This document shows positions 26,646 through 63,389 of a DNA stretch of 64,000 nt, one piece after another (within the stretch, counting starts at the first letter, position 1; the number at the start of each line of letters is the position of its first letter). Made by a program: the position numbers and the translations under genes. The notes under the pieces were generated by a model. It made no database searches and was not told the origin of the DNA. It saw nothing but the letters and a program-made list of their open reading frames with translations. The stretch is taken from the IMG/VR virus record IMGVR_UViG_3300037245_003639. One strand, written 5' to 3'. Source of the stretch: a virus.

Positions 26646-26672
26646 TTAAATCTTTTCCCGCGAATTTTTACC

Positions 26673-26701
26673 TTGACATACACCCTTACATGGGGTATAG
26701 T
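26673..26701 (+). promoter_or_regulatory. sigma70-type promoter TTGACA-N17-TATAGT with a TTTTCCCGCGAATTTTT box just upstream; no convincing ORF before the hairpin at 26808-26836
   Basis: Read directly. Confidence 0.4.
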
Positions 26702-26878
26702 GACTCTTGGTCATGAGTGACTTGGGGCCTAATCAACTCCAAACCGCGTGACACGCTTGCTAGTCACTTATGAACCTGGTGGATGCGGGTCATACCGCCC
26801 CTTGGTTCTGGCATTTCAAGCCAGGGCCATTTTTTTATGTCAGTTTGAGGCAATTGTCCAAGTTTCTTGGAAAATGCC

Positions 26879-26906
26879 TTGACAATAGCCAGGATTCCTG
26901 TATACT
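26879..26906 (+). promoter_or_regulatory. sigma70-type promoter TTGACA-N16-TATACT with the conserved leader TATACTCTCCTTAGACAAGGAG
   Basis: Same -10/leader cassette as the minus-strand early promoters. Confidence 0.5.
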
Positions 26907-26928
26907 CTCCTTAGACAAGGAGCGTAAA

Positions 26929-27261
26929 ATGCGAAGCGAAACCGACCGAATCTGTGCTGCAATCTTGGCTTACCCGCCTTTAGTAGCGGGTCATCCGGTC
27001 TCGAATAAGGCCCTTTCTGACCACGCTCAGGCCCATAGAAGTAACATGTATTGGGCTCTCACCCGAATGGTGAAACGAGGCACGTTGGAGAAACCCAGTC
27101 GAGGTACTTACAAACTCGTAAATCCCTCCCAAAGGTTGGCCGAGATTGCTGCTCAATGCAGCAAACAGCTTGCAGAACGTCAAATTACTGTAACTGTGAA
27201 CGGCCTGCGAGTAATGGGGACCGTAGATGACATCCGAGAACTCTTAATACAGGGAGCATAA
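26929..27261 (+). CDS. hypothetical protein, possibly a winged-helix regulator
   Basis: 110 aa; start after the cassette SD. Confidence 0.4.
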   Translation: MRSETDRICAAILAYPPLVAGHPVSNKALSDHAQAHRSNMYWALTRMVKRGTLEKPSRGTYKLVNPSQRLAEIAAQCSKQLAERQITVTVNGLRVMGTVDDIRELLIQGA

Positions 27262-27264
27262 CTT

Positions 27265-27603
27265 ATGCCAGCCCAATCAGCCAAACAGACATGGACCAAA
27301 GGGGAATGGAACAAACTACAGAAACGCAAGATCTCAGAAGCCGAATACTTTGGCTCTGTCGGAGACGTGAATATCGCTGACGCTGCCAGCACTATCACGA
27401 TCAACTGCCAATCACTCGATGCCGTCCAACAACTGGCCGACGCTGCTAATGCAGCCCTAGCACACTGGAAACGAGCAAAACATCAGAACCTTAAGTCCAA
27501 AACCGTCCGCAGCGCCCTACTACCCATTGATATGGTCAAATTCACGTACCACAAAGCAACTAACAAGATGACTTGCTTGGGATTCAAACGAAACTCTAAA
27601 TAA
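27265..27603 (+). CDS. hypothetical protein, 112 aa
   Basis: SD GGGAGC. Confidence 0.45.
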   Translation: MPAQSAKQTWTKGEWNKLQKRKISEAEYFGSVGDVNIADAASTITINCQSLDAVQQLADAANAALAHWKRAKHQNLKSKTVRSALLPIDMVKFTYHKATNKMTCLGFKRNSK

Positions 27604-28235: not shown

Positions 28236-28267
28236 CATTGCTTCTCCTTTAGCTTTGACCTACTTAG

Positions 28268-28296
28268 AGTATACCCTATGTTTCCGCCGCTGTCAA
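28268..28296 (-). promoter_or_regulatory. sigma70-type promoter TTGACA-N17-TATACT with conserved leader
   Basis: Read on the minus strand. Confidence 0.55.
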
Positions 28297-29220
28297 GTTC
28301 TTTTCGGATTTCTCTTCGGGTTTCTCTCTCAGCCCCGCTGTTTCGAGAGTCAATGCTACGGCGTTGCATGTACGATTGAGCAGTTGCATACATGCCTGTA
28401 TCGGCTCGCGGCCCTTGGCCCATGCAGTGATGTATTTGTAAGCCCCGCCTAGGTCAGCGTCACGTTCGTAACCGAGAGCATAGAGCAAAACAGCTCCACC
28501 TAATTCGGCTACGATTTCGCCGTCCGCGTATTCTCTGCTACCCTTGCCCCCTTGTGAATTCATCGCACCTAATCTATCATCGGCAGCATGTACTAATTCG
28601 TGGGCGAATGTCGAGACGTTTTCCACGCCGAGAGCGATAGCGTTTCGGCCACCGCTGTACCACCCTTGGGCGGCACCCGTTTGTCCGCTGTACGCTTGGA
28701 GCGACAGGCCCCACTCTTCGGCCACTTCACGCAGGGGTAGCCCGTCTAGGAATTCTTGGGCTTTGGCGTTGTCGGGCCGTGCCTTTTCCCATAGGTCGGG
28801 TTCGGTTATGTCGGTTTGCTCTAGGCCGAATACGGCCATGCCACGGAAACCGTAGATTATAAATCGGTCTTCGTCTGTACCATCATCGCCTTTGACGCTT
28901 CTCTTTCCCTTACAGGGGGCTAGGATAATGAAGGACTTTTCGCCCTGGCGTACTTGTCGTCCTACTTTTTTCCAGCCCGTCCATTCTGATGGGGGAAGGT
29001 CTACCCATTTCTTGCCGACTTTGTTCTTGGTCCTGCCGTAGGTCATGGCGTCGGACATGCCGCGCAAGGCGACGATCAGTTGATTTGACCAGCTATAGTT
29101 GCTGGCGTTTCGCCCGCCACATTTCAGGAATATGGGAGCGATAGCTTTCGGCAGCGTCCCCGCTTTGAACTGGCCGATGATGATGTCAGCGACGGATTCG
29201 GCTTGACCGTAGAGTTTCAT
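28276..29220 (-). CDS. ardC: ArdC-like antirestriction protein / zincin metallopeptidase (ssDNA-binding N-domain plus HExxH C-domain)
   Basis: About 314 aa; FAHELVHA, then GEIVAELGGAVLLYALG, parallel ArdC HELxH ... EELVAELGAAFL; ATGA overlap with the upstream gene. Confidence 0.7.
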   Translation of the reverse strand: MKLYGQAESVADIIIGQFKAGTLPKAIAPIFLKCGGRNASNYSWSNQLIVALRGMSDAMTYGRTKNKVGKKWVDLPPSEWTGWKKVGRQVRQGEKSFIILAPCKGKRSVKGDDGTDEDRFIIYGFRGMAVFGLEQTDITEPDLWEKARPDNAKAQEFLDGLPLREVAEEWGLSLQAYSGQTGAAQGWYSGGRNAIALGVENVSTFAHELVHAADDRLGAMNSQGGKGSREYADGEIVAELGGAVLLYALGYERDADLGGAYKYITAWAKGREPIQACMQLLNRTCNAVALTLETAGLREKPEEKSEKNLTAAET

Positions 29221-29561
29221 GCCAGAATCTCCACGTCCGCATCGGACAGACCTACACCTACCGACTCGGCCCACTCGGCGGTTGTTTTCGGCCAGTCCGT
29301 TGGCAAGCGATTCGAGTCAGGTACCATCGACGCAAAACGCAGAGGCGTTCGGTGTTGCAGTGGGTGAGCCCACCACTTTATCTCGGAATCGTCGGGCTGG
29401 TTGTCGGCAGGTACTACCAGGATAAGCATACCGGCGGGCAACATGCGGCGTTCGCCGGGATTGCCATGAACTGTCTGCTGGCGAGTCACTCCGATAGTAC
29501 GAATAACGTGGTTTTCGGGGCAGCGTCGGACAATCTTCTCACAGTCGCGACATAGAATCAT
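29217..29561 (-). CDS. hypothetical protein, 114 aa, N-terminal CxxC
   Basis: First gene after promoter 29585-29613; translationally coupled to the ardC-like gene. Confidence 0.45.
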   Translation of the reverse strand: MILCRDCEKIVRRCPENHVIRTIGVTRQQTVHGNPGERRMLPAGMLILVVPADNQPDDSEIKWWAHPLQHRTPLRFASMVPDSNRLPTDWPKTTAEWAESVGVGLSDADVEILA

Positions 29562-29584
29562 GTTTCACCTTTACCTTTACTCAT

Positions 29585-29613
29585 AGTATACATCAAGTTT
29601 CGGGGTTTGTCAA
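29585..29613 (-). promoter_or_regulatory. sigma70-type promoter TTGACA-N17-TATACT (perfect -35)
   Basis: Minus strand reads CCCTTGACAAACCCCGAAACTTGATGTATACT. Confidence 0.6.
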
Positions 29614-29678
29614 GGGTAAAAGTGGTTCTTTTTTCGGGCAGACGACGAAGGCGACGAGGTGATGCCAGCGCTTAATCC

Positions 29679-29733
29679 CACTTGAGATCAGTGTGTTCTA
29701 ATTTCCTTGCGAAAATTACACTGATCTCAAGTG
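29679..29733. repeat. inverted pair of the 15-bp element (F 29679-29693, R 29719-29733) around a 25-bp spacer holding a TTCCTTGCGAAAA half-box
   Basis: Perfect 15-bp inverted repeat read directly. Confidence 0.8.
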
Positions 29734-29830
29734 GGAGCTGCGGTTGAGCTGGTGGAGCGGACTCACTCGTGGCATAAAAAAAGGGCCAGCCTTTCGGCTG
29801 ACCCTACCCTTGATGCGAAACTACGCCAGT

Positions 29831-30085
29831 TTAGTAGTCGAGGCCACCTCCTCCTAAGCGGTCTTCGACGGCCTGATCGTGGAGTTGGTCACAAACGCAG
29901 GGGCTCATCAGGCAGTGGTCACAGTCGGCAGAGGGTGACTCGGGCGGCTCGCCCATCTCTTGGTCGAAACGGTCTAGGTCGTCTTCGTGAGCGTCGAGGG
30001 CGTCCTGTCCCGTTAGCATAACGTCTGTATGCCCACAGCAAGGCCAGTCGATGCAGCCGCAAGATCTGATTGGTACTCTGGCCAT
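29831..30085 (-). CDS. small Cys-rich acidic protein, 84 aa
   Basis: Cassette promoter 30117-30144 and SD GGGAGA. Confidence 0.45.
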   Translation of the reverse strand: MARVPIRSCGCIDWPCCGHTDVMLTGQDALDAHEDDLDRFDQEMGEPPESPSADCDHCLMSPCVCDQLHDQAVEDRLGGGGLDY

Positions 30086-30116
30086 TGGTTTGTCTCCCTT
30101 GCTTTGACCTACTTAG

Positions 30117-30144
30117 AGTATACCACATGTTTCTGGAATGTCAA
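30117..30144 (-). promoter_or_regulatory. sigma70-type promoter TTGACA-N16-TG-G-TATACT (extended -10) with conserved leader
   Basis: Read directly. Confidence 0.6.
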
Positions 30145-30290
30145 GTTCCAGTTGAGGGGTCTGTTGTTCATCCACTTGAGATCAGTGTGCTCGGGTGAAC
30201 GGAAAAAAGGCCAGCCTGACGGCTGACCCGCGCTGGGGGTTGGGATTTCGGGCCGTTCGTCTCACGGGTCCACGGCCTCGGGTTGCCCCG

Positions 30291-30560
30291 CTAACTTTTG
30301 ATGATTTCCACGTCATCGGGGCTGCGGAGGGTCACGAAATACGAGCGGACGATACGGTTGTTGGCGACTACCTGTCGGCCGTCGGCTCCCGACTTCCAGA
30401 TGTTGACTCGGAAGCAGCGTGCGGTAATCGGCCTTACATCCATCGACTCATCGGGGGCCAATTTCGGCTCGCCCTGTCGCTCTAACGCATCCGTGATGAT
30501 TGACTCGTTGGTCTTGGTTGGCTGTGTTTCGACTGGTTTCGTTGCGGTGGCGGTTTCCAT
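30291..30560 (-). CDS. hypothetical protein, 89 aa
   Basis: Cassette promoter 30590-30617. Confidence 0.45.
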   Translation of the reverse strand: METATATKPVETQPTKTNESIITDALERQGEPKLAPDESMDVRPITARCFRVNIWKSGADGRQVVANNRIVRSYFVTLRSPDDVEIIKS

Positions 30561-30589
30561 TGTTTGCTCCCTTGCTTTGACCTACTTAG

Positions 30590-30617
30590 AGTATACCACA
30601 GATTCCGCCATTGTCAA
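30590..30617 (-). promoter_or_regulatory. sigma70-type promoter TTGACA-N16-TATACT with conserved leader
   Basis: Read directly. Confidence 0.55.
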
Positions 30618-30882
30618 GTTCTTTGTTCAGGAATATCTAGCCACGCATTTACCACATTGCGTTGAACGACCTCTTGTTCCTCTGTCATTTTTCCGGGTCT
30701 CGGGTCCGCATCAGCCAGTATACGCTTTGCTTGGACTACTGCCAAGTTGTAGCGACGTACTGGATTTCGCTGGTGTCGCCGTCGCTCGACTCGCCGCTTT
30801 GCGGCAGCAGCGATTCGTTGAGCAGTTACCCACGGACATTCTGGTTGAGGCATCGCACCAGTCCTACTTGAGATCAGTGTTT

Positions 30883-31071
30883 CTAACGCGGACCGAGAGT
30901 CTCAGTATGGCGTGCAGTTATTTCGGCGGCTTTGTCTGCCGCTTGTTTGCGTACAGTTGCCGTCAAATCTTCCATGAAAACTTCCACACTCGATTCCAGG
31001 TCTTCTACGTCTGTAATGGTCATTAGGATCTGATTTACAATCCACTTGACCACTTGTTCGTAAGTTATCAT
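30883..31071 (-). CDS. hypothetical protein, 62 aa
   Basis: SD AGTAGGA; co-transcribed downstream of the tRNA-like gene. Confidence 0.4.
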   Translation of the reverse strand: MITYEQVVKWIVNQILMTITDVEDLESSVEVFMEDLTATVRKQAADKAAEITARHTETLGPR

Positions 31072-31129
31072 ATCCTACTCCAATGCTTCGCGTAGCACCG
31101 CTGTCTCACTTGAGATCAGTTCCTTAGTA

Positions 31130-31209
31130 TGGAGCCAGTAGGACTCGAACCTACAATCACCTGTATCTCGCGAGAAATACAGACGGCTTCCCAATTTGCC
31201 TATGGCCCC
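31130..31209 (-). tRNA. tRNA-like gene (80 nt) with canonical acceptor, D and T arms but a non-canonical, extended anticodon region
   Basis: 5' GGGGCCA pairs with 3' TGGCTCC (one G-U); D-loop AATTGGGAA; T-arm GTAGG-TTCGAGT-CCTAC; the central 22 nt are CTGTATT-TCTCGCGA-GATACAG (7-bp stem, 8-nt loop); no CCA encoded; own promoter at about 31270-31300. Confidence 0.45.
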
Positions 31210-31318
31210 AGGGGGCGGCGTGTCTCAGTCCGTCTGTTTGGAATGCCCATTCGGCCAGACAGAGCCGAGCGTCACGCCGCGCGATTCACAGCGTAGTATA
31301 CTCGCCCTTTCCACCTTG

Positions 31319-31477
31319 TCAACGGATAGGCGGATAGAATGGCTGGTGGTCATCGTCGAGCAACATGCCGTCGAACATCCACGGGACGAAGTGGTTGTTA
31401 TCCAGGACATGTTTTGAGGCTGTCGTGGCAGTAATTGCCAGCAGCACCAACAGGTAAACGGCAATTCGTTGTTTCAT
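31319..31477 (-). CDS. 52-aa secreted peptide (signal MKQRIAVYLLVLLAITATTA)
   Basis: Cassette promoter 31508-31535. Confidence 0.35.
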   Translation of the reverse strand: MKQRIAVYLLVLLAITATTASKHVLDNNHFVPWMFDGMLLDDDHQPFYPPIR

Positions 31478-31507
31478 GGTTTTATTCCCTTTGCTTTGAC
31501 CGTATGA

Positions 31508-31535
31508 AGTATACCACATGTGCGGGGTTTGTCAA
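31508..31535 (-). promoter_or_regulatory. sigma70-type promoter TTGACA-N16-TG-G-TATACT
   Basis: Read directly. Confidence 0.55.
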
Positions 31536-31700
31536 GTTCTTTTGTGGAATTTCCACCAAATCGCCGCAAGTTCACGAGTTCCTGTATCGCCGTTACGTCG
31601 GGGAAACCGATAGCGATCAAGGAATTGCCACAACGTCAATTTCCGGGCATCTTGTCGTATGGCTTTCACGGTTTGACTCCCTTGCTTTGACCTTATCAGA

Positions 31701-31729
31701 AGTATACCACACTTGCGGGAGATTGTCAA
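31701..31729 (-). promoter_or_regulatory. sigma70-type promoter TTGACA-N17-TATACT with conserved leader (drives a roughly 46-aa GTG-start ORF)
   Basis: Read directly. Confidence 0.5.
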
Positions 31730-31900
31730 GGGCATTTCCGAGTTCATTTCGATTTTACCGGGAAGGCCAGTGCCGCTGCCCGAGCACGCGCTGCCGGATC
31801 AGTCACTTGAGATCAGTGCGTTTGAATTTCTTTCCGCGAAAAAACGGCCCCGACCGGATGGTCGAGACCGTCTTGATGTTTTCCGTTAGGGGGTTGTAGG

Positions 31901-32173
31901 TTATCCGCCGGGTTTCGGTTTGGTGGGGATGGGGTCAAAAATCCCGCTAACTATGCCGTCCTCACAGCAGCAGTCATCGGCGTCGGGGCCATTGCCTGTT
32001 TGGTCGGCTGTGAACGTGAGATAAATGCCCATCTCACTCACTTGAATGGCTTTGACTACGCGTCTTACTTCGTCCTCCGTCACCGTCACCGTTTCCTCTG
32101 GTCGGGCGTTGGCGACTACCACCGTTGTTTTTCTCAGTCCTGCCCCTATTGGTTGTTTGTCACTGTCACTCAT
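31901..32173 (-). CDS. hypothetical protein, 90 aa
   Basis: SD AGGAG directly after a partial 15-bp element; the upstream gene's stop overlaps the element. Confidence 0.45.
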   Translation of the reverse strand: MSDSDKQPIGAGLRKTTVVVANARPEETVTVTEDEVRRVVKAIQVSEMGIYLTFTADQTGNGPDADDCCCEDGIVSGIFDPIPTKPKPGG

Positions 32174-32195
32174 GCTTGCTCCTACTTGAGATCAG

Positions 32196-32516
32196 TTAAA
32201 CGTATTCGTGGATGCCCGAGCAGACGCCACTGGCATGGCAAACTTCGCCAGCGACATCCCAGCCAACGTGGCCGCATTTGTTACAGAGGGTTTGTCGCCC
32301 TGTCGGTTCTTCTAGCAGCATTCGCAACGTAGCCATGGCGGCGATTCGGCAATCCAGCATACTCGCCAGACCTTGGACTTCGCCAAGGTCGTTTAGATGG
32401 CGCTCGTCATCCTTGACTGCTTGTTTAATTCCATCGAGCGTTATCTGTAAAGCTCGGATACGGGTGAGCGTATCGCCCTTTAGGTCGTCAAGTTTCTTTT
32501 GAGCTACTGCTCTCAT
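32196..32516 (-). CDS. hypothetical protein, 106 aa
   Basis: Cassette promoter 32545-32572. Confidence 0.45.
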   Translation of the reverse strand: MRAVAQKKLDDLKGDTLTRIRALQITLDGIKQAVKDDERHLNDLGEVQGLASMLDCRIAAMATLRMLLEEPTGRQTLCNKCGHVGWDVAGEVCHASGVCSGIHEYV

Positions 32517-32544
32517 GGACTCTCCCTTTGCCTTAACCTTTCTA

Positions 32545-32572
32545 AGTATACCACATCTCAGCAGATTGTCAA
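32545..32572 (-). promoter_or_regulatory. sigma70-type promoter TTGACA-N16-TATACT
   Basis: Read directly. Confidence 0.55.
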
Positions 32573-32683
32573 GCATAAAGTTGTTCTATTTATTAATTTC
32601 GTGTAGGTAATTCGGTGTTGAGTTATTTGGTGTGGGGTATGCGTATGAATTACTCACTTGAGATCAGTGCGGTCTACTCGATA

Positions 32684-32860
32684 CTACTTGGCCCTAATGA
32701 TTTTCGCAAGCTCCGCAGCGATTTGTCGGTTGCTGTTGCCGTCTTGAAACATTTGAAGCCCCTTGTCTCTCACGTCGTCGTCATGCCAGTGGGCATTGGC
32801 TTTTGCTTTTCCTACCAAGTCCCACAACATCATCAGGATAAGACCTTGTTGACTCGCCAT
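32684..32860 (-). CDS. hypothetical protein, 58 aa
   Basis: Promoter 32878-32905. Confidence 0.4.
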   Translation of the reverse strand: MASQQGLILMMLWDLVGKAKANAHWHDDDVRDKGLQMFQDGNSNRQIAAELAKIIRAK

Positions 32861-32877
32861 GTTTGCTCCCTTTGCTA

Positions 32878-32905
32878 AGTATATCACATCTCAGCAGATT
32901 GTCAA
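32878..32905 (-). promoter_or_regulatory. sigma70-type promoter TTGACA-N16-TATACT
   Basis: Read directly. Confidence 0.5.
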
Positions 32906-32967
32906 GAGAAAATTAGAACATCTACACGAAGGAGACAAAGATGGAGAAACTCCAAGTTGGCACTGGC

Positions 32968-33288: not shown

Positions 33289-33639
33289 CTACCTTTCGTC
33301 GGGAAACATCAGAGTGATGCCACCGCTTCCGTTGGCCCCAATCCATACGTCTTTGCCCGTGACGTTTCCTCCGAGGCCTTCCGTCCACAGATGATCAGCG
33401 GGGTTGCCCTTTACAATCAGCAGAGCGTCCTGGATGAGTGGGATGGCTCGCTGTTCGAACGTCCTGTCGTCCTGGACGGCTTCGATGGCTTCGTGGACTC
33501 TGACGGTCAAGAAGACTCGGACTCCAAACTTGGCTGGAAATGGCTCACCAATCATGCCGTCTTCGAGCGCGTCGTCGTCGGTATAGACGCTGATAGGGTC
33601 GCCAAACATCTCGGTCATCGGGTCTTTTGCTTTGCTCAT
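33289..33639 (-). CDS. hypothetical protein, 116 aa; leaderless (ATG 6 nt after the -10 TACTAT)
   Basis: Promoter 33646-33674 (TTGACA-N17-TACTAT). Confidence 0.45.
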   Translation of the reverse strand: MSKAKDPMTEMFGDPISVYTDDDALEDGMIGEPFPAKFGVRVFLTVRVHEAIEAVQDDRTFEQRAIPLIQDALLIVKGNPADHLWTEGLGGNVTGKDVWIGANGSGGITLMFPDER

Positions 33640-33689
33640 GTATGAATAGTAACCCATGTTTGCCACTTTGTCAAGCGAAAAATTGGTTC

Positions 33690-33703
33690 TTTTCCGCGGA
33701 AAA
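33690..33703. promoter_or_regulatory. perfect 14-bp palindrome TTTTCCGCGGAAAA about 16 bp upstream of the -35 (centre near -62)
   Basis: Read directly. Confidence 0.5.
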
Positions 33704-33900
33704 TTGAAGAGTTTGCGAATTTTGTAATTTTGTAACTTTGTAACTGTTTCGCAATTTCGCAATTTTGCAACTTTGTAACTGTTGCAACTTTGCAAGTATT
33801 TGCAACTTTGCAACTTTGCAACTTTGCAACTTTGCAACTTTGCAACTTTGCAACTTTGCAACTTTGCAACTTTGCAACTTTGTATTTGCAACTTTGCGAA
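33700..33900. repeat. microsatellite: 8-bp unit TTGCAACT (about 13 pure copies at 33796-33896, degenerate copies upstream)
   Basis: Read directly; the ORF-track products with KVAKLQSCK repeats are artefacts of it. Confidence 0.85.
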
Positions 33901-33935
33901 GATTCAACTATTTCAAGTTTGGGTGGAACCAGGTT

Positions 33936-34012
33936 CACTTGAGATCAGTGTAAAAAGTAATTTCGTGTAGGTAATTCCGTGTTGCAATTTCGTGTAGCAC
34001 TGATCTCAAGTG
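33936..34012. repeat. inverted pair of the 15-bp element (F 33936-33950, R 33998-34012) enclosing three AATTYCGTGTWG iterons
   Basis: Read directly. Confidence 0.8.
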
Positions 34013-36634: not shown

Positions 36635-36640
36635 TCATTC

Positions 36641-38753: not shown

Positions 38754-38820
38754 TTGCTCCCTTGCGGGTAGTCTACTCCATCCGCGAAAGTTTGTCAAGG
38801 ACGGATTCGGAACTAGCTTG

Positions 38821-39927: not shown

Positions 39928-40011
39928 GTCGGTATCTTACTCTATTCTGGTTGAATTGTCAAGCGGAACTTTGTTCTATTTCGTGTTGCAATTCCGTGTT
40001 GGAATTCCGTG

Positions 40012-40674
40012 TTAGGCAGCGGCTTCTACTTGCTTGCGGACTTCATCGTCCACGCTATCCAGCATCCCGTTTTCCGTAGGGTCGCTGCCATAGAAACCCC
40101 AGCATGAATCGCCAGTTTCCCCTCTTCCGCCGCATTCGCCACAGGGCGGCTTGCGGACGATGTAGCCGTAGGTATCGCCCGCGAGAAACTGACTGTAGAT
40201 TTCCACTTCGGCAACCAACGCTGCCGTTATCCGCGCGAGCAATTCGTCGGTCAGAAATTCAGGGTTGCTTTCCGGACAGAATTCTTCGATAATCCTCCGC
40301 TTTGTGATGTAAATCCAACCGACTTGCCCCCAGTCCCATCCCGCCGAATCACAGGCGCGAAACGCATCGTTGCTGGTCCGCAAGGCAAGGCCGCTATGGT
40401 CCATGAGAAACAGCGGAAGTATCACTTCGATTCCGTCGCTCACATGCTCTTCCTGGCATGTATGAATCGAATGCAAGTGGGCCTTCAATCCATCCCAGTC
40501 CTTGAAGTCTTCGGAGCGATAGTCATGTTCGTCGCCCAGATTGTAGCGACCGTGGAAGCAAACCATCGTTCCGAGGTTATCCCAGTCACGGGGACTTTCG
40601 GGGTCAGAGTCAGAGTGAATCTCAAACTGACCACCATTGGAAAGTTGAATCGTCTGAATCGGGTCCAATTTCAT
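40012..40674 (-). CDS. hypothetical protein, 220 aa
   Basis: The TTTTCCGCGGAAA box lies between the -35 and -10 of its promoter (40726-40738). Confidence 0.5.
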   Translation of the reverse strand: MKLDPIQTIQLSNGGQFEIHSDSDPESPRDWDNLGTMVCFHGRYNLGDEHDYRSEDFKDWDGLKAHLHSIHTCQEEHVSDGIEVILPLFLMDHSGLALRTSNDAFRACDSAGWDWGQVGWIYITKRRIIEEFCPESNPEFLTDELLARITAALVAEVEIYSQFLAGDTYGYIVRKPPCGECGGRGETGDSCWGFYGSDPTENGMLDSVDDEVRKQVEAAA

Positions 40675-40739
40675 CTCCTGTTAGCGTAGCTCGCTTTGCT
40701 AGCTTGATAGATGAACCTTACCAGATTTTCCGCGGAAAG

Positions 40740-42764: not shown

Positions 42765-42887
42765 TTTGTTTCTCCTATTGACCCAACTATACATTGCCAT
42801 TGGTGGTTTGTCAAGGATAATTTTCAGTGCGGGAAATTCCGTGTTGCGAATTTCGTGTTGAGGCCCAGCCCCGGGCTAACATTAATC

Positions 42888-42945
42888 CACTTGAGATCAG
42901 TGCTAAGCAATTTCGTGTTGGGTATAGCTACACTGATCTCAAGTG
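42888..42945. repeat. inverted pair of the 15-bp element (F 42888-42902, R 42931-42945) enclosing one AATTTCGTGTTG iteron
   Basis: Read directly. Confidence 0.8.
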
Positions 42946-43490: not shown

Positions 43491-43678
43491 GTCAATAGCT
43501 TACCCCATCACGCCCGATTTGTCAATCCCATTTTGATGTTCCATTTGATTTCCCGCGGAAAAGTTTGAAGGCTATAGATATGCGTCTCTTCTGGTATTCC
43601 GTGTTGGCCTACATCGCTCTCTGTTAAAAGAGCAGGGACGGGCCATGTAGACCCGTCCCTTTGTCATCCCTCCCTCTC

Positions 43679-51336: not shown

Positions 51337-51381
51337 CACTTGAGATCAGTGCGCTGAAATGGAAGACACTGATCTCAAGTG
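51337..51381. repeat. inverted pair of the 15-bp element with a 15-bp spacer (F 51337-51351, R 51367-51381)
   Basis: Read directly. Confidence 0.8.
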
Positions 51382-51480: not shown

Positions 51481-51536
51481 CACTTGAGATCAGTGTCCTG
51501 TTTATCAGACCTTGAAACTTACACTGATCTCAAGTG
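51481..51536. repeat. inverted pair of the 15-bp element with a 26-bp spacer (F 51481-51495, R 51522-51536)
   Basis: Read directly. Confidence 0.8.
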
Positions 51537-51860: not shown

Positions 51861-52060
51861 TGGAATCTTTGTTCTTTGGGGTTTGATTGTTGTGTTCTAA
51901 TGGAATCTTTGTTCTTTGGGGTTTGATTGTTGTGTTCTAATAGAATCTTTTTATTGATGGTAGAATCTTTGTTTTTTGGGGTTTGATTGTTGTGTTCTAA
52001 TAGAATCTTTTTATTGATGTTTATTGATGGTAGAATCTTTCTGTTGATATTGTGTTCTAG
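51861..52060. repeat. 40-bp tandem repeat T(G/A)GAATCTTTGTTYTTTGGGGTTTGATTGTTGTGTTCTAA (3 full units plus a degenerate one) interleaved with AT-rich 20-mers
   Basis: Units at 51861, 51901, 51961 and about 52031. Confidence 0.85.
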
Positions 52061-52093: not shown

Positions 52094-52152
52094 TATTTCG
52101 TGTTGGGTTTCATGTTCCTGGGAATTTCGTGTTGGGTTGAATTTCGTGCTGG
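52094..52152. repeat. three AATTTCGTG(T/C)TGG iterons
   Basis: Copies at 52094, 52123 and 52140. Confidence 0.7.
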
Positions 52153-52591: not shown

Positions 52592-52855
52592 TCATTCAAA
52601 CCCTCGGACGTAAATGTTTTTGGTATTTGGGTCATAGACTCCGGTACGGGATGGGAATCCTTGTGGAATGGTTCTTGGTCTTCTGATGGTAGGGAGTAGG
52701 TACTTGATTTGCCATTTACCGATATTCAGTGCTGTATATACTTTTGGTCCTCCATCCCCTTGTTGGTTACAGTATGGACAAGTAGAGGATGTGTGCAGAT
52801 CGTTCCAGTCTAGCTGGTGATGGCAGAAGTAGCAGTGTTGGGTTTGTTTTACCAT
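52592..52855 (-). CDS. zinc-finger protein, 87 aa (CxxC...CxxC; possibly an HNH-type nuclease)
   Basis: Promoter TTGACC-N17-CATAAT with the TTTCCGCGGAAAA box upstream. Confidence 0.4.
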   Translation of the reverse strand: MVKQTQHCYFCHHQLDWNDLHTSSTCPYCNQQGDGGPKVYTALNIGKWQIKYLLPTIRRPRTIPQGFPSRTGVYDPNTKNIYVRGFE

Positions 52856-52923
52856 ATAGTGATTATGGGGGACATGGGGGTATTGGTCAAGGGGGCTTTG
52901 AATTTCTTTCCGCGGAAAATGGG

Positions 52924-53427
52924 TTATTGTGCAAAGTAATTATCCAGATGTTGCACGAGTTTCTTTGATGGGAATATGGCTGTTTGGTTTTGTCTCTGTT
53001 CTTCTATGAAGTATCCTTGGCTGACGAGCATTCCATAGGCGGTTGCGTTATCGACGATGCCATTTCCGCTGGATGAAAAGACGCCTTTGCCACGCCATGA
53101 GAGTGGCTCTCCTGGGTCTCCATTGGCGTTTATTACGGCAGCGCTGATGGTTTGGGCCACCATGGCTTCTGTTTCGGCTCCGCGTCTGCGGTTTGGAAAC
53201 AGGTGACAGAGACTGCGTTTGTCTATTTGGGCTTTGAGTCTTGTTACGTCTGCTACGGTGGCTTTCATGGGTTTCCTTAGCTCCGTTTCTCGGTATCCCT
53301 CGCAATGAAGCAGCGTGTTGTGCATCAAATCGCGAATCCATTGGCAGGACTGCCTATTGTTGACATACTCGTAAAAGGCCCATTGGTAGGAGCCTTCTGT
53401 GGGTGTTTCTTTTAGGGTGGTGGTCAT
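52924..53427 (-). CDS. hypothetical protein, about 167 aa
   Basis: Start MTTTLKE; 5'UTR CCAATTTTCGCGGAGA provides the SD. Confidence 0.45.
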   Translation of the reverse strand: MTTTLKETPTEGSYQWAFYEYVNNRQSCQWIRDLMHNTLLHCEGYRETELRKPMKATVADVTRLKAQIDKRSLCHLFPNRRRGAETEAMVAQTISAAVINANGDPGEPLSWRGKGVFSSSGNGIVDNATAYGMLVSQGYFIEEQRQNQTAIFPSKKLVQHLDNYFAQ

Positions 53428-53452
53428 ATTCAATTCTCCGCGAAAATTGGGT

Positions 53453-54049
53453 TTAGGATGCGTCGCGTACCCAATCGTGTTCACTTCCGTAATCGCAACC
53501 TTCGGGTGGCAATGTGCTACGGATAGGACAGGTTTCGTCATCGTCCTGGGGGCCGTTGCGGACTTTTTTGCACCAGCAGCAAATGGCCGATTGCGTTCCG
53601 GCAACCCTGGGGCCTAACAATGGAGCAGAGCCACGCTGACAACATGCAAGGAAGTCGTCTACTGCCTCACCTGTAAAGAGTGGAGTTTCCTTGACCTGAA
53701 TAGTAGACAAGCCCGTTCTATTCAAGCGGTCAACTCTCTCTGAGTAGCTAATTGTCTCGTTCATCCAATCAGGAATAGGAACTCTGGACAAGAAAAAGCC
53801 ACTAAAAGTGGCTCTCTTTTGTTCCCAACCGCCACCGGTTCCTGTGTGATACAAGTCCATTTTGTAAGGGAACAGGTATCCGATATCTGATAAGAACTGT
53901 TCGATTCGTGATGTTTTTACATGACGCACGCCGAGGAAACTGCGGAAAGCTTGGCCGGACAGACAAACGCAGTCGGCTTTGGATTGCCAACAGAGACGAG
54001 CAAGATACTCGGCCATCTTCTTGTGATTGATTCTATCAAAGTTATTCAT
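53453..54049 (-). CDS. hypothetical Cys-rich protein, 198 aa
   Basis: Same 5'UTR element, GCCAATTTTCGCGGAGA. Confidence 0.45.
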   Translation of the reverse strand: MNNFDRINHKKMAEYLARLCWQSKADCVCLSGQAFRSFLGVRHVKTSRIEQFLSDIGYLFPYKMDLYHTGTGGGWEQKRATFSGFFLSRVPIPDWMNETISYSERVDRLNRTGLSTIQVKETPLFTGEAVDDFLACCQRGSAPLLGPRVAGTQSAICCWCKKVRNGPQDDDETCPIRSTLPPEGCDYGSEHDWVRDAS

Positions 54050-54203
54050 CTTGCTCTCCGCGAAAATTGGCTAGAGTACAATTTTTACGAGCCAGTAAAC
54101 CAGACCGTTGAATAGAGCAGTGATGCTCAGGCCAACCATAAGCCACCACACGCAGCGTGGTATTGTGATTGTTTTGGGCTCAAAGAGCCAGGCGATAATG
54201 TTC

Positions 54204-54695
54204 TCAATCACCTCTCGCTCCTGTCGTTGTCGTTAGCTTTGCTTTGAGTTGTTCCATGGCTTCCCGGGCTTTCCTGGTTTGCTTTTCCCTTAATTTAGCT
54301 TCATAGGGTTTACTCAGATTATCCGCTTCTGCGAGGATAGCCTGTAGGCATTCTCGTTCTTCGGATGACAGGCAGAGTTCCTTTCCGTGATGCCCGGGAT
54401 GCCACCGCAGCATCCCGCGGATTTCCTGGCTTTTCTGCATTATTCGCCAATGTTCTATTGGTATAAGCCCATAGTTGTCATGTCGTTTGTAGACTTCTGG
54501 ATTGATTGAGATTGTATCGTCGGTTCTGGAAATATCAAGCGTGATCCAGTAGTCGGTTGAAAGCCACGTTGTCAGGAAGAGGCAGGCTACTGCTAGGAAA
54601 ACCATAGCGGGGGCAAGTCCCGACTTGCCCTTATCACGTATGGCGATTGCAATCGCCGCGATTATGATGATGATTCCGGGGATAAGAACTAGCAT
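54204..54695 (-). CDS. membrane protein (MLVLIPGIIIIIA...), tandem paralog
   Basis: About 50% identical to 54770-55216. Confidence 0.45.
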   Translation of the reverse strand: MLVLIPGIIIIIAAIAIAIRDKGKSGLAPAMVFLAVACLFLTTWLSTDYWITLDISRTDDTISINPEVYKRHDNYGLIPIEHWRIMQKSQEIRGMLRWHPGHHGKELCLSSEERECLQAILAEADNLSKPYEAKLREKQTRKAREAMEQLKAKLTTTTGARGD

Positions 54696-54769
54696 GATTC
54701 TCTCCTATCGTTTGGCTCGTCCAAGAGGATTTCGCTCAATTGCTTGCAGCCGAGCGATAATGTTCTCAA

Positions 54770-55216
54770 TCATTTCTCATTCCATCGCTCTTGGAACTCT
54801 TCCGTCACTTTTATGACCTGTTTTTTCCTGAATTCTTCGCTGTATGGGCGTTGAACTTCAAGCGTTTTCGCGATAATTGCTTGGAGATTTGCTTGTTCAT
54901 CATCGGACAGATAGGATCGGTTCCGTCTCAAGAAGTCAGAAGCCTCTTTGCCTTTGTCCATGATACGCGAGTCGGCTATTGGTATAAGCCCATAGTTGCT
55001 ATGTCGTTTGTAGACTTCCGTGTTGAATGAGATTGTATTGTCGGTTCTGGAAATATCGAGTGTGACCCAATAGCAGTTTGAAAGCCACGCTGTCAGGACG
55101 ACAAAGATTATCGCTAGACCAGCCATAACGGGAGCAAATTCTGAACCGGGCCTGCAACACACGACGATCACGAGCAACGCGATTATGATGATGATTCCGG
55201 GGATGAGAACTAGCAT
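54770..55216 (-). CDS. membrane protein, tandem paralog of 54204-54695
   Basis: Shared N-terminus and YKRH(S/D)NYGLIPI block. Confidence 0.45.
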   Translation of the reverse strand: MLVLIPGIIIIIALLVIVVCCRPGSEFAPVMAGLAIIFVVLTAWLSNCYWVTLDISRTDNTISFNTEVYKRHSNYGLIPIADSRIMDKGKEASDFLRRNRSYLSDDEQANLQAIIAKTLEVQRPYSEEFRKKQVIKVTEEFQERWNEK

Positions 55217-55596
55217 GATTCTCTCTTATCTGCCTCTTCGTCGAGACGAGCATTGATTTCGTCTAATGTTTCGTAGCTGACGGGATGCGGCTCTTGCTCC
55301 AAGTTTCGCCGCACTTGCTGCGCGTGTTCTTGTAACGTGGGCGGTTTTTGGCCGGTGATTTCACAAACTTGCTTTTTGAACCGCCAGCCGAGATAGACGA
55401 TGTTCGTGCGCAGTCGCCGCAGGCCCCGATAGGTTTTGACGGCAACGTACAATGTTACCAACGCTGTCAACCACCACCACCAATGCTCAGGGGCCTTGCA
55501 AATCTTCCAGACAGATAGCAAGAAAAGCAGGCCAAAAATGATGCTCCCTCGGTATTCCTTGGCGATATACAACCAATGTTCGATTTTGCGTCTCAT
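55210..55596 (-). CDS. membrane protein, 128 aa
   Basis: Promoter 55651-55679 (TTGACA-N17-TATACT). Confidence 0.45.
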   Translation of the reverse strand: MRRKIEHWLYIAKEYRGSIIFGLLFLLSVWKICKAPEHWWWWLTALVTLYVAVKTYRGLRRLRTNIVYLGWRFKKQVCEITGQKPPTLQEHAQQVRRNLEQEPHPVSYETLDEINARLDEEADKRESC

Positions 55597-57601: not shown

Positions 57602-57607
57602 GGGGTT

Positions 57608-58602: not shown

Positions 58603-59968
58603 AGCTACATTTTATCTGAGAGGTTGTTGATTGTCAATGATTTTCATCCGCGGAAAATGGATGGCGGATGATTTTGTGTCCCTGAGTTCTCCAGCCCTCG
58701 ATGTACTCATTGAGTTTATCGTCGGGGTTTGCGGATATGTCTCCAGCGACAATTTGATACTCAGCTACTTCGATGCTGAGCAGACCTCGTTCATCCTCGG
58801 CCACGTCTTCTATGCCAATGATGGAATAGAAGTTCATTGGTTTGCCTTCAAATCCTTCTTGTTGTTTTAGGTGGATAGTTGCCATATCAGAATATTGTTC
58901 CTCCACAACAGAAGTAGATTGACAACATAACAATGGCCATGAAGATGAAAGTGACCCATGGGGTTCTTTTGGGTTTTGGTTGAGGCCAATGGCCTGTCTC
59001 TTGCATCATTTTGATGTACTCGTCTTCTACGCCTTTTTGATGCGCATGCAAGCAATCTTGGCAGATGCCAACATGTAGATAATCAGGAGAATAGTTGCCG
59101 CAATGACGACAGTAGCCAGCCATTAGGTTTCACTCGCTTCATTCTCATCGTCTACCCTGAAAATCATGTTCAATTCGTCGAATGGGTCAGGTGGCGGTCG
59201 GGTTTCAGGGTCATAGTGAAACACTCTACTACAGTGGGGTGATTCGACAAGCAACCGCTGGCCATTATCTCTGATGGAGCAAGCTCGAAAGACGCAGCCA
59301 TCGATATGACGGGCAGTCGAGGCGTATTTCATGGCCTTTTGTCGGGCGTCTGCATAGGTTAATTCATCGGCCACCGCTGCTCCAATTGCTGACGTTTATC
59401 TTTGAGCATTTGTTTGGCCCAGTTTTGTAGGACAACATCTAGTTCACATATGGCCTGCCCCAGGATGTCGTTGATAGCATCCAGTTCTTTTTCAATCTGG
59501 CGGTAGATTTCGTTGCCGCGGATTTTCTGGGTTCTCAGTTCATGCTCTGAGAGACAGACGAAGACGTAAGTTCTACCCATCCAGAAGGTCATTTGTTGTT
59601 CCAATAGACTGAGACGCTGATGCTGTTCCACAGGACAATCACCCACCCGAAACCAACCAGAACCCTGTTGACGATTTCCGGTTGGCCGGTAATGGGGGTG
59701 ATCCGCAGGATAACGAATCCCACCGCAACAGCAATGGCACTGACTAAAACTTTCCAGTTCACTAGTGTTTCCTCAGCCTAAGTTTCATCTCTGTCGTTAT
59801 CAGGGTTAAACGACTCTGGTCTTGACTGGTGAATTCAATGGGCTGATTCGCAGCCGTGAGCATTTTGGCTACGAGTTCAGCCTCAACCAATCTGCGATAT
59901 TCTGCCAACAGGTTTGGGCCTGCCATGTTACGAATTTCTTTGTAAGAGGCTGGAGTTCTGGCCATCAC

Positions 59969-60250: not shown

Positions 60251-60690
60251 GATCCTGCACTCACTCTTGCTATTGCTGCCTTGGCGTCATACTTTATCTC
60301 TTCCAACGTCTTTGAGTGGTCACATTTCCACTCAAAGAATGGCCCAGTACGCCCACTGCCACAATAACCGTTTTCCCCAATTTGTTCAATGTCATACCAG
60401 CCGATTTTGATGCAACCAATTTGATGGTTTCTGTGAGCATCATCATCACCATGAACGAAGTAGTTCTTGAGCCGATTTTTGGCATGACGAATCGCAGCCA
60501 AGATAGCACGAGGCATCAATGATTCGGGTCTCGGTGTCTCGTTAGGAGCATCTTCGGGCAGCGTGAAAAGAGTAACGATAGCCCGTTCACGTCGGCCACC
60601 CGCGTTGGCGTCATCATAAGTAACCGCTACTTCGACTTCGAGGCATCTCATGTCTAACTCCCGCTCCAGTGTCGCTGCATGTCGCACCAT
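60247..60690 (-). CDS. hypothetical protein, 147 aa
   Basis: ATGA overlap. Confidence 0.4.
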   Translation of the reverse strand: MVRHAATLERELDMRCLEVEVAVTYDDANAGGRRERAIVTLFTLPEDAPNETPRPESLMPRAILAAIRHAKNRLKNYFVHGDDDAHRNHQIGCIKIGWYDIEQIGENGYCGSGRTGPFFEWKCDHSKTLEEIKYDAKAAIARVSAGS

Positions 60691-60757
60691 CCTTCCAGTT
60701 GGAGGATAACCGATTAGTGAGAGATTGTCAAGCGTAATTTATGGTTCTGTCGTTGCA

Positions 60758-61174
60758 CTATCCAAACATATCTCTCAATTGTGCGTCTCTACGCTTTTTT
60801 GCGTTGGCTTCCCATCCTACCAGCGTGGGGTCTTGTTCTTCACTGGTATTCGCCGCTAACCGCCAGCGGTTGAGACGATTGTAGTCTTTGATGGTATCGT
60901 GGATGATTTCTATGTGTTTTTCACCGCTGATTGTAATTCCCTGCTCGTCTCGCCCTCTGGTATCTCCCCTGACGAACATTTTATCCGCCGCTCTCCATTC
61001 GGGGAAATTGCAAGAAACGAGCCTGAGGCCATAGGGTCCACTATACTCACTACAGCAGACGCAGCCCTCGGGGTAATGAAATTCATCGCCGCGAAATTCT
61101 TGACGAACGACTACCAACTCCCATTTGTCATCGCCCAGTTTGGTTATCTTGACTTTCAGAGCATCCTGCATCAT
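60758..61174 (-). CDS. hypothetical protein, 138 aa
   Basis: ORF. Confidence 0.4.
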   Translation of the reverse strand: MMQDALKVKITKLGDDKWELVVVRQEFRGDEFHYPEGCVCCSEYSGPYGLRLVSCNFPEWRAADKMFVRGDTRGRDEQGITISGEKHIEIIHDTIKDYNRLNRWRLAANTSEEQDPTLVGWEANAKKRRDAQLRDMFG

Positions 61175-61784
61175 CAGCCTTTCTGAATTCCAATTGTTAA
61201 AGTCTTGTCATAATCACGCCTGTTGCAGTGTAAGGGAAATGGCTGTGATTGTCAATGGTGTTTTATTAGTGCAGGAATGTTATTTCAAGGCTTGTTCGAC
61301 GAGTTGGTTCTTAGTCATTGGGAAGTTTGCCGTGCAGGATGTTCATCACCAACTCAATTTGAAAGAGATTGTCAAGGGTTTTTATTGGTGCGGAAAGAAT
61401 CGATCGTCGGTGAATTCAGGGTTAGTGAAGCCGATTATAGAGTGAGTAGTTCCTATCAGCTCATGTTCCAACACGCCGGCTTGATGAGTATGGATCACTT
61501 CAACTGCATCGGCATCGGGGAATTGGCCCTTGACTTCATGAACTAGTTTGTCAGCCCTGCGAATTCGTGAAACTTTGCGGTGAATGATGATAGTCTCGAT
61601 CATGCTGTCAATATACTCCTAGGAGACTATTTGTCAAGGTAGAAATAGACGGTTCTAAGGCAAGGCTCCACCCACCGTCAAGTCTAATTTTTCGGAGACT
61701 TACCGCTTAGCCGACTACAAAACGGCAGCTTCCTAGCCCTGCTGGCAACTAAGGATGCAGTTGTAGAGCATTTGGTTTGAATTG

Positions 61785-62861
61785 TCAAGGACGGAGATTC
61801 CTAAAATACTCATCTTCTTCCGCGAATTTTACATGAGATAACCAATTGGCGGATTGATGCAGTACAGAGAGATACTTGGCTGGGATATTGCCATAGACTG
61901 CTACCGTATCAAGCATATAATCCTGTTCATGTTCGGCTTCATAGAAATCATAACCAATCAGATGAGCGAGAGCATTTTTGGTTTCAGCTTCTTCGACAGG
62001 AGTTTCGCCAGCGATTTCGGGCATATAGCCGTCAGCCTTCATGGCATTGAGGTCGATCGCAATAACGGTCTCGCCATAGCTCTCTAGGGATGCATGGGGA
62101 CTGTCAGTATATTCAGGGCTGATAGTGAAAACGGCAGGCCCCATATCTTTGTTGCTGAGCCCTCGCGTATCTTCTCGGGCTTCGAGGCCGGTCACCATTA
62201 TGGCGTCAAGGTTTTCTTCGATCGTAGCGTGATAAAGAACCGCTCCTGGACCTACGCTTTCCCAAAACTCTTTGGATTTGTTTTGTTCTGGAAAGTAGTC
62301 CTCGGGTTGTTCTGCGGCATCTTCTATCCACTCCTCAGCAGAATCCCATTTGGTAAAACTTCCATCATCATTCTGTTCTACCACCCATAATTCAGGGACT
62401 TCCTTGCCCCACGCATTTTTGTTGGCACCGACTTCGATGGTGAGTATTTTTTTGCCTGTGGGAGCCTCTACAGTATCGTAGTTGATATTGTGCTTGTCCA
62501 TTATTTGTCGGAGACGTTCCATGTCTCCATTATCTATATAGAACTCAAGTATCTCGTTATCAAACCAATTCTCATAATCTTCTGGCTTAGGGGATTCAGG
62601 CTCACGAGAATTGTATTCTATTTGCTGCAAATAGCGGTCGTAGTTCGGGTCTCCTGTCACAGGATTCTGTTGTATCCACTGTAGGAGTTCTTTCCAAGGT
62701 TGAGATGCGGCCTGATTAATTTGAGCATCTTCCACCAACGAATCATAGTAAGTCACAGCTTCGCGGGGAAATGCTCGTCGAATCTCTAACGCACGTTTGA
62801 CGGCAGCGGCCATGCGTTGCGCTAGGTCGCTAAGTTGAGCTATCTTCTGAACCCAGTTCAC
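61785..62861 (-). CDS. hypothetical acidic protein, 358 aa
   Basis: ORF. Confidence 0.45.
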   Translation of the reverse strand: MNWVQKIAQLSDLAQRMAAAVKRALEIRRAFPREAVTYYDSLVEDAQINQAASQPWKELLQWIQQNPVTGDPNYDRYLQQIEYNSREPESPKPEDYENWFDNEILEFYIDNGDMERLRQIMDKHNINYDTVEAPTGKKILTIEVGANKNAWGKEVPELWVVEQNDDGSFTKWDSAEEWIEDAAEQPEDYFPEQNKSKEFWESVGPGAVLYHATIEENLDAIMVTGLEAREDTRGLSNKDMGPAVFTISPEYTDSPHASLESYGETVIAIDLNAMKADGYMPEIAGETPVEEAETKNALAHLIGYDFYEAEHEQDYMLDTVAVYGNIPAKYLSVLHQSANWLSHVKFAEEDEYFRNLRP

Positions 62862-63340
62862 TCCTGGTCTCCGAATCTAAGTCTGCGGATTCCCATTGAC
62901 CTGCTGAATTCGAGTTCATCGTCAATCATCTCATAGACTTTACCAACCATAACCTTAACCAGTTCCATTCTCCACCGCTGTAATCCTCCTGGCTCTCGCG
63001 GAAGTTCACGGGATATCTTCTGGCTATATTGCGTGGAGTTTATCAAACTTTGATCTTCGCCCATCAGGGTAATGTAAATCATGGTATCGCCACCGAATTG
63101 GGAGAACTGATCATTTACATTGAGTTCAGCTTTTATCCCAGCCTCGTTTTGGAACAAAGCTATCCTGGCAGTGGAATACTCAGCCGGGTCTGCTACACGT
63201 TGGCTTGAACCAAGTAATGTAAACTGACCCAATTGTGGGTGGGGTTGCTGTTGGAAGATATTTCCCACGTCACTAATCCAATCCCCGATTCCATTGCCTG
63301 GAGGGGGAACCTGGGCCAAACTTTTGTGCAACCAATTCAT
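62858..63340 (-). CDS. hypothetical protein, 160 aa
   Basis: ATGA overlap; ATTTCCGCGGAAGGAAAAG box in the 47-nt intercistronic gap upstream (63369-63386). Confidence 0.45.
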   Translation of the reverse strand: MNWLHKSLAQVPPPGNGIGDWISDVGNIFQQQPHPQLGQFTLLGSSQRVADPAEYSTARIALFQNEAGIKAELNVNDQFSQFGGDTMIYITLMGEDQSLINSTQYSQKISRELPREPGGLQRWRMELVKVMVGKVYEMIDDELEFSRSMGIRRLRFGDQE

Positions 63341-63389
63341 ATCCTTAGAATTGCCTCTAAAGGGGTGCTTTTCCTTCCGCGGAAATAGT

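Follow-up and report, generated by a model that had tools for sequence, protein, structure and literature searches.

In the lambda CI/Cro (OR/OL) and phi29 p4 systems, one protein can repress or activate promoters depending on the position of its site. Here we describe a palindromic box, with an approximate consensus of ATTTTYCGCGRAAAAT, in a 64,000-nucleotide stretch of viral DNA (IMG/VR record IMGVR_UViG_3300037245_003639), which in its full length is called the window below. Like the lambda and phi29 sites, the boxes are short dyads located in or beside the -35/-10 region and further upstream. Their sequence is, however, unrelated to those sites, and no cognate repressor gene was found within the window. 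Moreover, instead of clustering at one switch, the boxes are spread across many promoters and a distance of more than 30 kb, and there is no sign of a lysogeny module.

The shape of the box also recalls KorB OB sites of IncP plasmids, ParB parS and Noc NBS, which are likewise palindromes of 13-16 bp, the arms rich in T and A and the centre in GC, present in multiple copies at variable distances from co-regulated promoters. The resemblance is one of shape; the parS, NBS and OB sequences themselves differ from that of the box. Furthermore, no ParB-like protein was found in the window, and many boxes sit exactly in promoter spacers, a placement that distance silencing of the KorB type does not need. 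FNR and CRP sites of the 5-4-5 type (TTGAT-N4-ATCAA for FNR) have the same 14-bp layout with 5-bp arms, but the arm sequence of the box is different. Boxes centred close to -48, -58 and -65 are reminiscent of activator sites, whereas spacer sites are atypical of this class. The CodY box AATTTTCWGAAAATT shares the arms TTTTC and GAAAA, but its centre is 1 bp long in contrast to the 4-bp CGCG of every box. Neither a cNMP-binding nor a CodY-like protein appeared in our scans of the window. A literature search for the box sequences returned only primers and the unrelated yeast PDRE, and no bacterial or phage operator with this sequence.

The box is a real, conserved, promoter-associated palindromic element. 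It is present in statistical excess, restricted to non-coding DNA, placed in recurrent geometry with respect to promoters, and both conserved and subject to turnover across related sequences. Judging from these sequence traits, we regard it as probably (at roughly 0.65) the operator of a dimeric DNA-binding protein that controls some of the sigma-70-type promoters. The kind of element is familiar, the genome that carries it is not.

The palindromic box and its placement in promoters

The first-pass annotation of the window, made from the letters alone, had listed twelve positions of a recurring perfect palindrome and its half or variant copies, and all twelve hold the sequences described. The word perfect was nevertheless too strong for most of them. 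The perfect 14-bp palindrome TTTTCCGCGGAAAA, whose dyad symmetry (TTTTC-CGCG-GAAAA) is complete, occurs a single time in the window, at 33690-33703. What recurs exactly is its 10-bp core TTCCGCGGAA, found at four positions (33692, 40728, 52908 and 63375) and with one mismatch at three others (43551, 58646 and 31832). A further one-mismatch match inside a gene at 48634 is probably due to chance. In the consensus, arms TTTY and RAAA flank the CGCG centre. As read from the sequence, the arms are about one helical turn apart, a spacing that would suit a dimer such as those formed by helix-turn-helix proteins.

Against a shuffled background, the box is in excess. With up to two mismatches allowed, the 14-mer has six copies where 0.29 are expected, and none of 100 dinucleotide shuffles reached six. 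An unbiased palindrome screen gave the same picture. TTCCGCGGAA is the sole palindromic 10-mer present in at least two copies (4 versus 0.086 expected, Bonferroni-corrected p of 2.2e-3), and TTTCCGCGGAAA, with three copies versus 0.007 expected (Bonferroni-corrected p of 2.5e-4), is the sole palindromic 12-mer that repeats. Nor is the palindrome equally frequent in coding DNA, which the annotation had named as evidence that would speak against an operator. All five copies of TTYCGCGRAA are intergenic according to our own gene calls, by which 25-34% of the sequence is non-coding, and shorter forms such as TYCGCGRA are found in genes at near background.

The window is composed of two blocks. The first, from position 1 to about 27.8 kb, is mainly plus-strand and includes genes for a SNF2 helicase, an FtsH-like AAA protease, ClpS, NADAR and an acyl carrier protein. 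The second, from about 28 to 64 kb, contains about 60 small genes, only a few of them not on the minus strand, and is dense in near-consensus host-type promoters (TTGACA-17-TAnnnT). Our own pattern scan found about 35 minus-strand promoters of the form TTGAC[ACT]-16/18-TAnnnT, and a separate promoter scan of 26-46 kb counted 35 promoter-like sites, compared with 13.9 ± 3.5 in shuffles. At least ten of these promoters have an ATG 6 nt past the -10 hexamer, which implies leaderless messages.

Leaderless promoters with ATG or GTG at this distance were listed on the minus strand at 61637, 58637, 52890, 49539, 43525, 42039, 39962, 36047 and 33674, and promoters of the same type are also present on the plus strand, at 10868 and 22230. 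The open reading frames (ORFs) downstream of leaderless promoters encode 57-428 aa. Such a share of leaderless promoters is unusually high for one genome region.

Two kinds of placement are seen when box centres are counted with the leaderless ATG as +1. In the first, the box lies between the promoter hexamers. The copy TTTTCCGCGGAAAG at 40726-40739 fills the 17-bp spacer of the minus-strand promoter 40743-40715 (TTGACT-TTCCGCGGAAAATCTGG-TAAGGT), its centre being at about -24.5, which confirms the spacer position assigned to it by the annotation. The half-degenerate copy at 38780-38790, reading TTTCGCGGAT on the minus strand, had been listed as a half or variant box, and a degenerate box it is. 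What had been overlooked is that it, too, sits within a spacer, that of the promoter 38798-38770 (TTGACA-AACTTTCGCGGATGGAG-TAGACT), with its centre at about -21.5.

In the second kind of placement, the box lies upstream of the -35 hexamer. The annotation had put three such boxes near -60 and one next to the -35, and measured centres agree. The perfect box at 33690-33703 is centred at -57.5 of the leaderless minus-strand promoter 33674-33646 (TTGACA-17-TACTAT), where the ATG of the 116-aa gene 33289-33639 follows 6 nt past the -10. The same distance of -57.5 separates CTTTCCGCGGAAAA at 52906-52919 from the start governed by the leaderless promoter TTGACC-17-CATAAT (52890-52862), which precedes gene 52592-52855. 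The copy TTTCCCGCGGAAAA at 43549-43562 is centred at -65.5 of the leaderless promoter 43525-43497, located before the 134-aa gene 43086-43490. Finally, an interrupted-arm box, ATTTTCCGCGGATGAAAAT on the minus strand (58644-58657), is centred at -48.5 of the leaderless promoter 58637-58609 and overlaps the final codons of ORF 58634-58837. All four upstream-box promoters are thus leaderless, a regularity noticed post hoc and not strictly followed by relatives. Inspection by eye revealed no hidden divergent promoter that would put these upstream boxes into a spacer on the other strand. Between the perfect palindrome and its -35 lies a half-box-like word, CCAATTTTTCGC (33675-33686, minus strand), whose left arm, as read from the sequence, is identical to that of the CCAATTTTCGCGGAGA words at 53435 and 54055.

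The remaining half or variant copies are a mixed group. The variant TTTCCCGCGAATTTTTA at 26654-26670 is, like the 38780 copy, linked to a promoter, its centre being at about -47.5 of the plus-strand promoter 26673-26701. Downstream of this promoter come a terminator-like hairpin (26803-26829), a second promoter (26879-26906) and then gene 26929-27261. The other four are doubtful. In the variant TCTTTCCGCGAAAA at 31829-31842, the minus-strand T-run is the tail of a terminator hairpin (-24.7 kcal/mol), followed by a copy of CACTGATCTCAAGTG; the same terminator-plus-box layout was found in two related contigs (L003 at 17709, L006 at 6763 and 13595). The sequence at 29703-29715 is devoid of the CGCG core and lies in the loop of a 19-bp inverted repeat. 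The half box CCAATTTTCGCGGAGA occurs at two intercistronic, minus-strand junctions, 53435-53449 and 54055-54069, where, as the annotation had stated, it precedes genes 52924-53427 and 53453-54049, respectively, and supplies the GGAG Shine-Dalgarno sequence of each. A gene duplication as the origin of these two junctions was rejected, for the two genes are not paralogues. An exact core copy TTCCGCGGAA at 63373-63386 lies between genes 63390-63953 and 62858-63340, with no recognisable promoter near it. It is carried identically by the contig L014, which represents the same genome.

Conservation and turnover of the box in related contigs

Relatives of the region were found via the 497-aa protein encoded at 43679-45172 (minus strand), homologues of which are present on metagenome contigs at 52-66% protein identity. 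The contigs belong to six independent lineages: L002; L003/4/5/10/11; L006; L007/8/13; L012; and L017 and L018. A further metagenome scan yielded only contigs from lineages already found. The relatives are syntenic with 35-52 kb of the window at 65-80% nucleotide identity. Some of them come from Antarctic-lake-type samples of the Joint Genome Institute and one from deep-sea sediment data. In L002, the syntenic region contains an IS200/IS605-type insertion (738-3667) with two TnpB-like genes and a Y1 transposase.

Other collections gave nothing comparable. Megablast found no DNA-level match to the region in phage and plasmid collections, scans of IMG/VR by protein and by the promoter-plus-box pattern returned no relative and a single unrelated chance hit (L009), and a protein scan of bacterial genomes detected no relative. 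A 203-kb phage contig (L015), reached by way of homologues of a 358-aa protein, is not syntenic and carries neither boxes nor promoters of this type. Two proteins identical to window proteins are on record from a 403,172-bp contig, which places the window within a very large uncultivated element. We infer that this element is most likely a huge phage; the window itself is without structural genes.

The box has been kept in at least four diverged related lineages. Its position in them is far from random. Promoter spacers account for 2% of the sequence of the non-redundant relatives, yet contain 9 of the 22 box words (binomial p = 2.4e-10), and five further words are located at most 40 nt upstream of a -35 (p = 5e-3). 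Over the window and its relatives together, the positional classes were as follows: spacer sites centred at about -24.5 and about -21.5, and upstream sites at -45 to -49, -57.5 and -65.

Spacer sites are shared both by orthologous and by unrelated promoters. In the window as in L002, L003 and L007, the orthologous 206-220-aa gene is preceded by the promoter TTGACW-(W)TCCGCGRAAAATCnnG-TAAGGT. The spacer TTCCGCGRAAAATCnnG is also present before unrelated genes (L007 at 478 and 724, L005 at 604, L012 at 621), where the flanks are dissimilar. The reversed half-degenerate form TTGACAAnCTTTCGCGG is common to the window (38789), L002 (15830) and L007 (8723).

Upstream sites are preserved as well. The -65 box of the leaderless 134-aa gene is kept in the window, L002 (11575) and L003 (9920), in each case 29-30 nt upstream of the -35. 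The 116-aa gene has a box in its promoter in three lineages, but the box is centred at -57.5 in the window and at -45.5 in L007, and that of L006 lies within the spacer. To judge by these sequences, this is site turnover with the putative regulatory link retained. That gene and site stay together while the site moves is the usual way in which regulatory links evolve. In L006, a more distant lineage, the spacer box itself reads TTTCGCGCGAAA, its arms being kept and its centre changed. The few other L006 copies have a GCGC or CGCGCG centre. Taken alone, L006 gives weak statistical support to this variant (uncorrected p about 2e-3).

Possible mode of action, candidate binders and competing explanations

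If the box is an operator, its predicted reader would be a sequence-specific protein that binds as a dimer and governs some of the many promoters in the one-directional, early-like region of small genes. At spacer copies (40726, 38780 and those of nine or more promoters in relatives), occupancy by this protein would keep RNA polymerase off and thereby repress transcription. These copies are best read as repressor sites because, on general principles, a protein filling the 17-bp spacer must exclude RNA polymerase. The same protein may bind the copies at -45 to -65 (33690, 43549, 52907, 58641 and 26654), where it would either aid repression or activate. A reading at the level of RNA was rejected for spacer and upstream copies, as these are not transcribed from their own promoters. 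The operator of a dimeric regulator suggested by the first-pass annotation gains from conservation across lineages, from the many spacer placements and from the conserved -65 site. The small proteins it had proposed as binders remain guesses.

One of these proteins, of 110 aa (26929-27261, plus strand), is the sole Pfam-detectable DNA-binding candidate in the window, with a Pfam E value of about 1e-4. Its single-sequence model has winged-helix topology at a predicted local distance difference test score (pLDDT) of 67, and its fold matches have E values no better than 0.05. No homologue of it was found in a set of 5.8 billion proteins. A variant box is located upstream of its gene, but the terminator-like hairpin and the second promoter mentioned above lie between them. 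We therefore treat this weakly winged-helix protein as a candidate binder only. Another possible candidate, an 88-aa protein (21912-22178, plus strand), shows the ribbon-helix-helix-like pattern of an extended segment followed by two helices, which are predicted as such; its single-sequence model is of low confidence (pLDDT 64). For the third protein proposed, 45788-46009, no fold could be recognised, and some relatives that carry the box lack it. The genes controlled by box promoters are varied and do not resemble regulators. The 220-aa and 116-aa proteins, considered as autoregulators, were rejected as binders: they are conserved but match nothing in Pfam or PDB, and they look acidic and non-DNA-binding. 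Since about 340 kb of the roughly 403-kb genome lies outside the window, it is quite possible that the binder is encoded elsewhere or by the host.

Several observations weigh against an operator of the kind described. Pfam and PHROG scans of the approximately 105 window proteins produced a single weak match, to a winged helix, and no other regulator family. Only about 7 of some 45 window promoters carry a box, and no promoter lies close to the copies at 63373, 53435 and 54055. With one mismatch tolerated, the box comes eighth among palindromes (uncorrected p = 3.8e-3) and fails multiple testing, so that the signal within the window depends on the exact copies. L017 and L018, of about 9 kb each, have the same strong promoters but no promoter-associated box, and the box is therefore specific to a clade and not universal. 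Orthologous spacers without a box are also fairly conserved, at about 71% compared with 82-88% by our own count. The argument from orthologues is for this reason weak by itself, and the weight falls on the sharing of boxes between non-orthologous promoters. Finally, because the spacer word recurs in promoters of unrelated genomes of Clostridia, an effect of a host factor or of the polymerase itself keeps some share of probability.

In this last explanation, which we hold to be tentative and on the whole unlikely, the box would be bound not by a phage regulator but by a conserved host factor, or serve as a spacer element to which the RNA polymerase holoenzyme of the host responds, and would mark a class of host-tuned promoters. 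The promoters of the phage are otherwise purely host-type (TTGACA-17-TAnnnT). A scan of 185,579 bacterial genomes with TTGACWWYCCGCGRAAAATM returned 53 matches, 25 of them with TAnnnT at the right distance, and most of those 25 are promoters of unrelated genes in metagenome-assembled genomes (MAGs) of Clostridia/Oscillospiraceae. Promoter context among the matches is several-fold more frequent than a rough estimate of chance. The 53 matches are, however, near the rough random expectation of about 35, no extra boxes are enriched around the Clostridia loci, and none of these loci is related to the window. The Clostridia signal may merely reflect the fact that TTGACA plus an A-rich stretch is enriched in real promoters. 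The box is also present at -45 to -65, a region in which sigma makes no contact with DNA. The pattern TTGACW-WYCCGCGRAAAAT-N3-TAnnnT was seen in about 20 independent promoters of unrelated genes in Clostridia/Oscillospiraceae MAGs (L020-L071), one of which (L061) is directly upstream of a tRNA gene.

It could also be supposed that the box has no dedicated binder at all and that its copies are remnants of duplicated or recombined promoter or junction cassettes, or the signature of a restriction-modification system recognising the SacII site CCGCGG. The whole 29-bp spacer-type promoter is indeed alike between copies, the two CCAATTTTCGCGGAGA junctions neighbour each other, and the spacer of the window promoter 33674 recurs before a different gene in L007. 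Such a supposition is unlikely to hold. Flanks of the copies are unrelated, the box persists where protein identity has fallen to 52-66%, and it shifts relative to the -35 yet stays with the same gene. With regard to restriction-modification, CCGCGG has no copy in the first 33 kb of the window, where 5.9 are expected, but conserved variants hold CCGCGA or CGCGCG with their arms conserved. The strict hexamer is thus not the conserved unit. All 11 copies of CCGCGG are located in 33.6-63.4 kb, and six of them are boxes.

A bolder form of the operator reading, which we consider doubtful, would make the box the site of an unrecognised global regulator of very large phages, switching early and probably anti-defence genes, with the site co-evolving. 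The centre of the box is CCGCGG in most lineages and CGCGCG in one. KorB-like action over a distance, or reading of a Z-DNA-prone centre, would be possible elements of this scheme.

Sites of the ParB/KorB/Noc type, at which a cytidine triphosphate-dependent clamp loads on 14-16-bp palindromes and silences promoters at varied distance or serves partition, are very improbable. The distances between box and promoter do vary and some copies have no promoter, as would be expected of such a system, and T-rich and A-rich arms around a GC centre are shared with parS (TGTTTCACGTGAAACA) and the Noc site (ATTTCCCGGGAAAT). Precise and repeated placement in spacers points instead to direct occlusion. Moreover, no ParB-like domain (ParBc) was detected among the window proteins by Pfam and PHROG, nor were CRP/FNR (cNMP-binding), CodY or standard repressor families.

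A Z-DNA-prone or bendable supercoiling sensor, possibly read by a Z-alpha-like winged helix, can be practically dismissed: alternating CG centres (CGCG and, in L006, CGCGCG) with A/T tracts invite the idea, and Z-alpha domains are among the many generic winged helices weakly matched by the model of 26929-27261, but those matches have the low significance and model confidence given above, and Z-DNA propensity does not explain the conserved arms TTTY and RAAA.

Surrounding repeats and significance of the box

Several other repeats are found in the same region. The most abundant is a 15-mer, CACTTGAGATCAGTG, which is far commoner than the CCGCGG box. Its 26 copies, 18 in one orientation and 8 in the other, are spread over 27813-51536 and are all non-coding; examples are at 29679-29733, 33936-34012, 42888-42945, 51337-51381 and 51481-51536. 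Inverted pairs of it form perfect stems of 15-19 bp (-27 to -37 kcal/mol), with loops containing ACACGRAAT arrays or a box-like word. In L006 and L017 it is replaced by the variant CACTGATGTCAAGTG. It might serve as a processing site, a protein site or a roadblock.

The word ACACGRAAT occurs 14 times on the minus strand (32604, 33968-33995, 36807, 39986-40012, 42844-42918, 43604 and 52103-52132) and not once on the plus strand. It often forms direct arrays with a 13-14-bp period just upstream of the -35, as at promoters 39962, 42814 and 32572. Similar arrays are present in L006 and L007, and the half-word C-CGGAA resembles an arm of the box. A further tandem array, at 33705-33902, repeats the 8-bp unit TTTGCAAC about 20 times, some units at one end being degenerate (TTTGTAAC and TTCGCAAT). 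In the direction of transcription, the array is directly upstream of the perfect palindrome and has no counterpart at the corresponding place in L007.

In 28245-32906, promoters of the form TTGACA-16/17-TATACT (28296, 30144, 30617, 31535, 31729, 32572 and 32905) share the leader CTAAGTAGGTCAAAGCAAGGGAG up to the start codon, and similar GGTCAAGCAAA-GGAG leaders were found in L006 and L007. At 31129-31210 (minus strand) there is a tRNA-like gene, scoring 50 bits with the Rfam tRNA model, which has an odd anticodon loop and received no amino-acid assignment from ARAGORN. A 12-bp tandem repeat in the 3' part of the 497-aa gene (43870-43977) encodes a lysine- and alanine-rich repeat tail, of which L012 has a far longer version. 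Two copies of a 286-nt direct repeat, 54424-54709 and 54945-55230, are 77% identical, indicating that the neighbouring genes 54204-54695 and 54770-55216 are paralogues. Three copies of a non-coding repeat of about 57 nt were found at 51863-52019.

If the operator reading is confirmed, the box would be the first handle on the timing of expression in an uncultivated phage-like genome of about 400 kb with dense host-type promoters. With it would come a 16-bp operator of defined sequence, a regulon of modest size and naturally occurring variants suited to binding tests. The regulon would include the conserved 116-, 134- and 220-aa proteins of unassigned function and adjoins an ArdC-like anti-restriction gene. 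Principles of operator function would be unchanged by this; the value of the box would lie in the entry it gives to the regulatory grammar of this genome, in which at least two other repeated words are more abundant than the box. That surrounding grammar, with its 26-copy 15-mer, ACACGRAAT arrays, 8-bp array and leaderless promoters, may be more unusual than the box itself.

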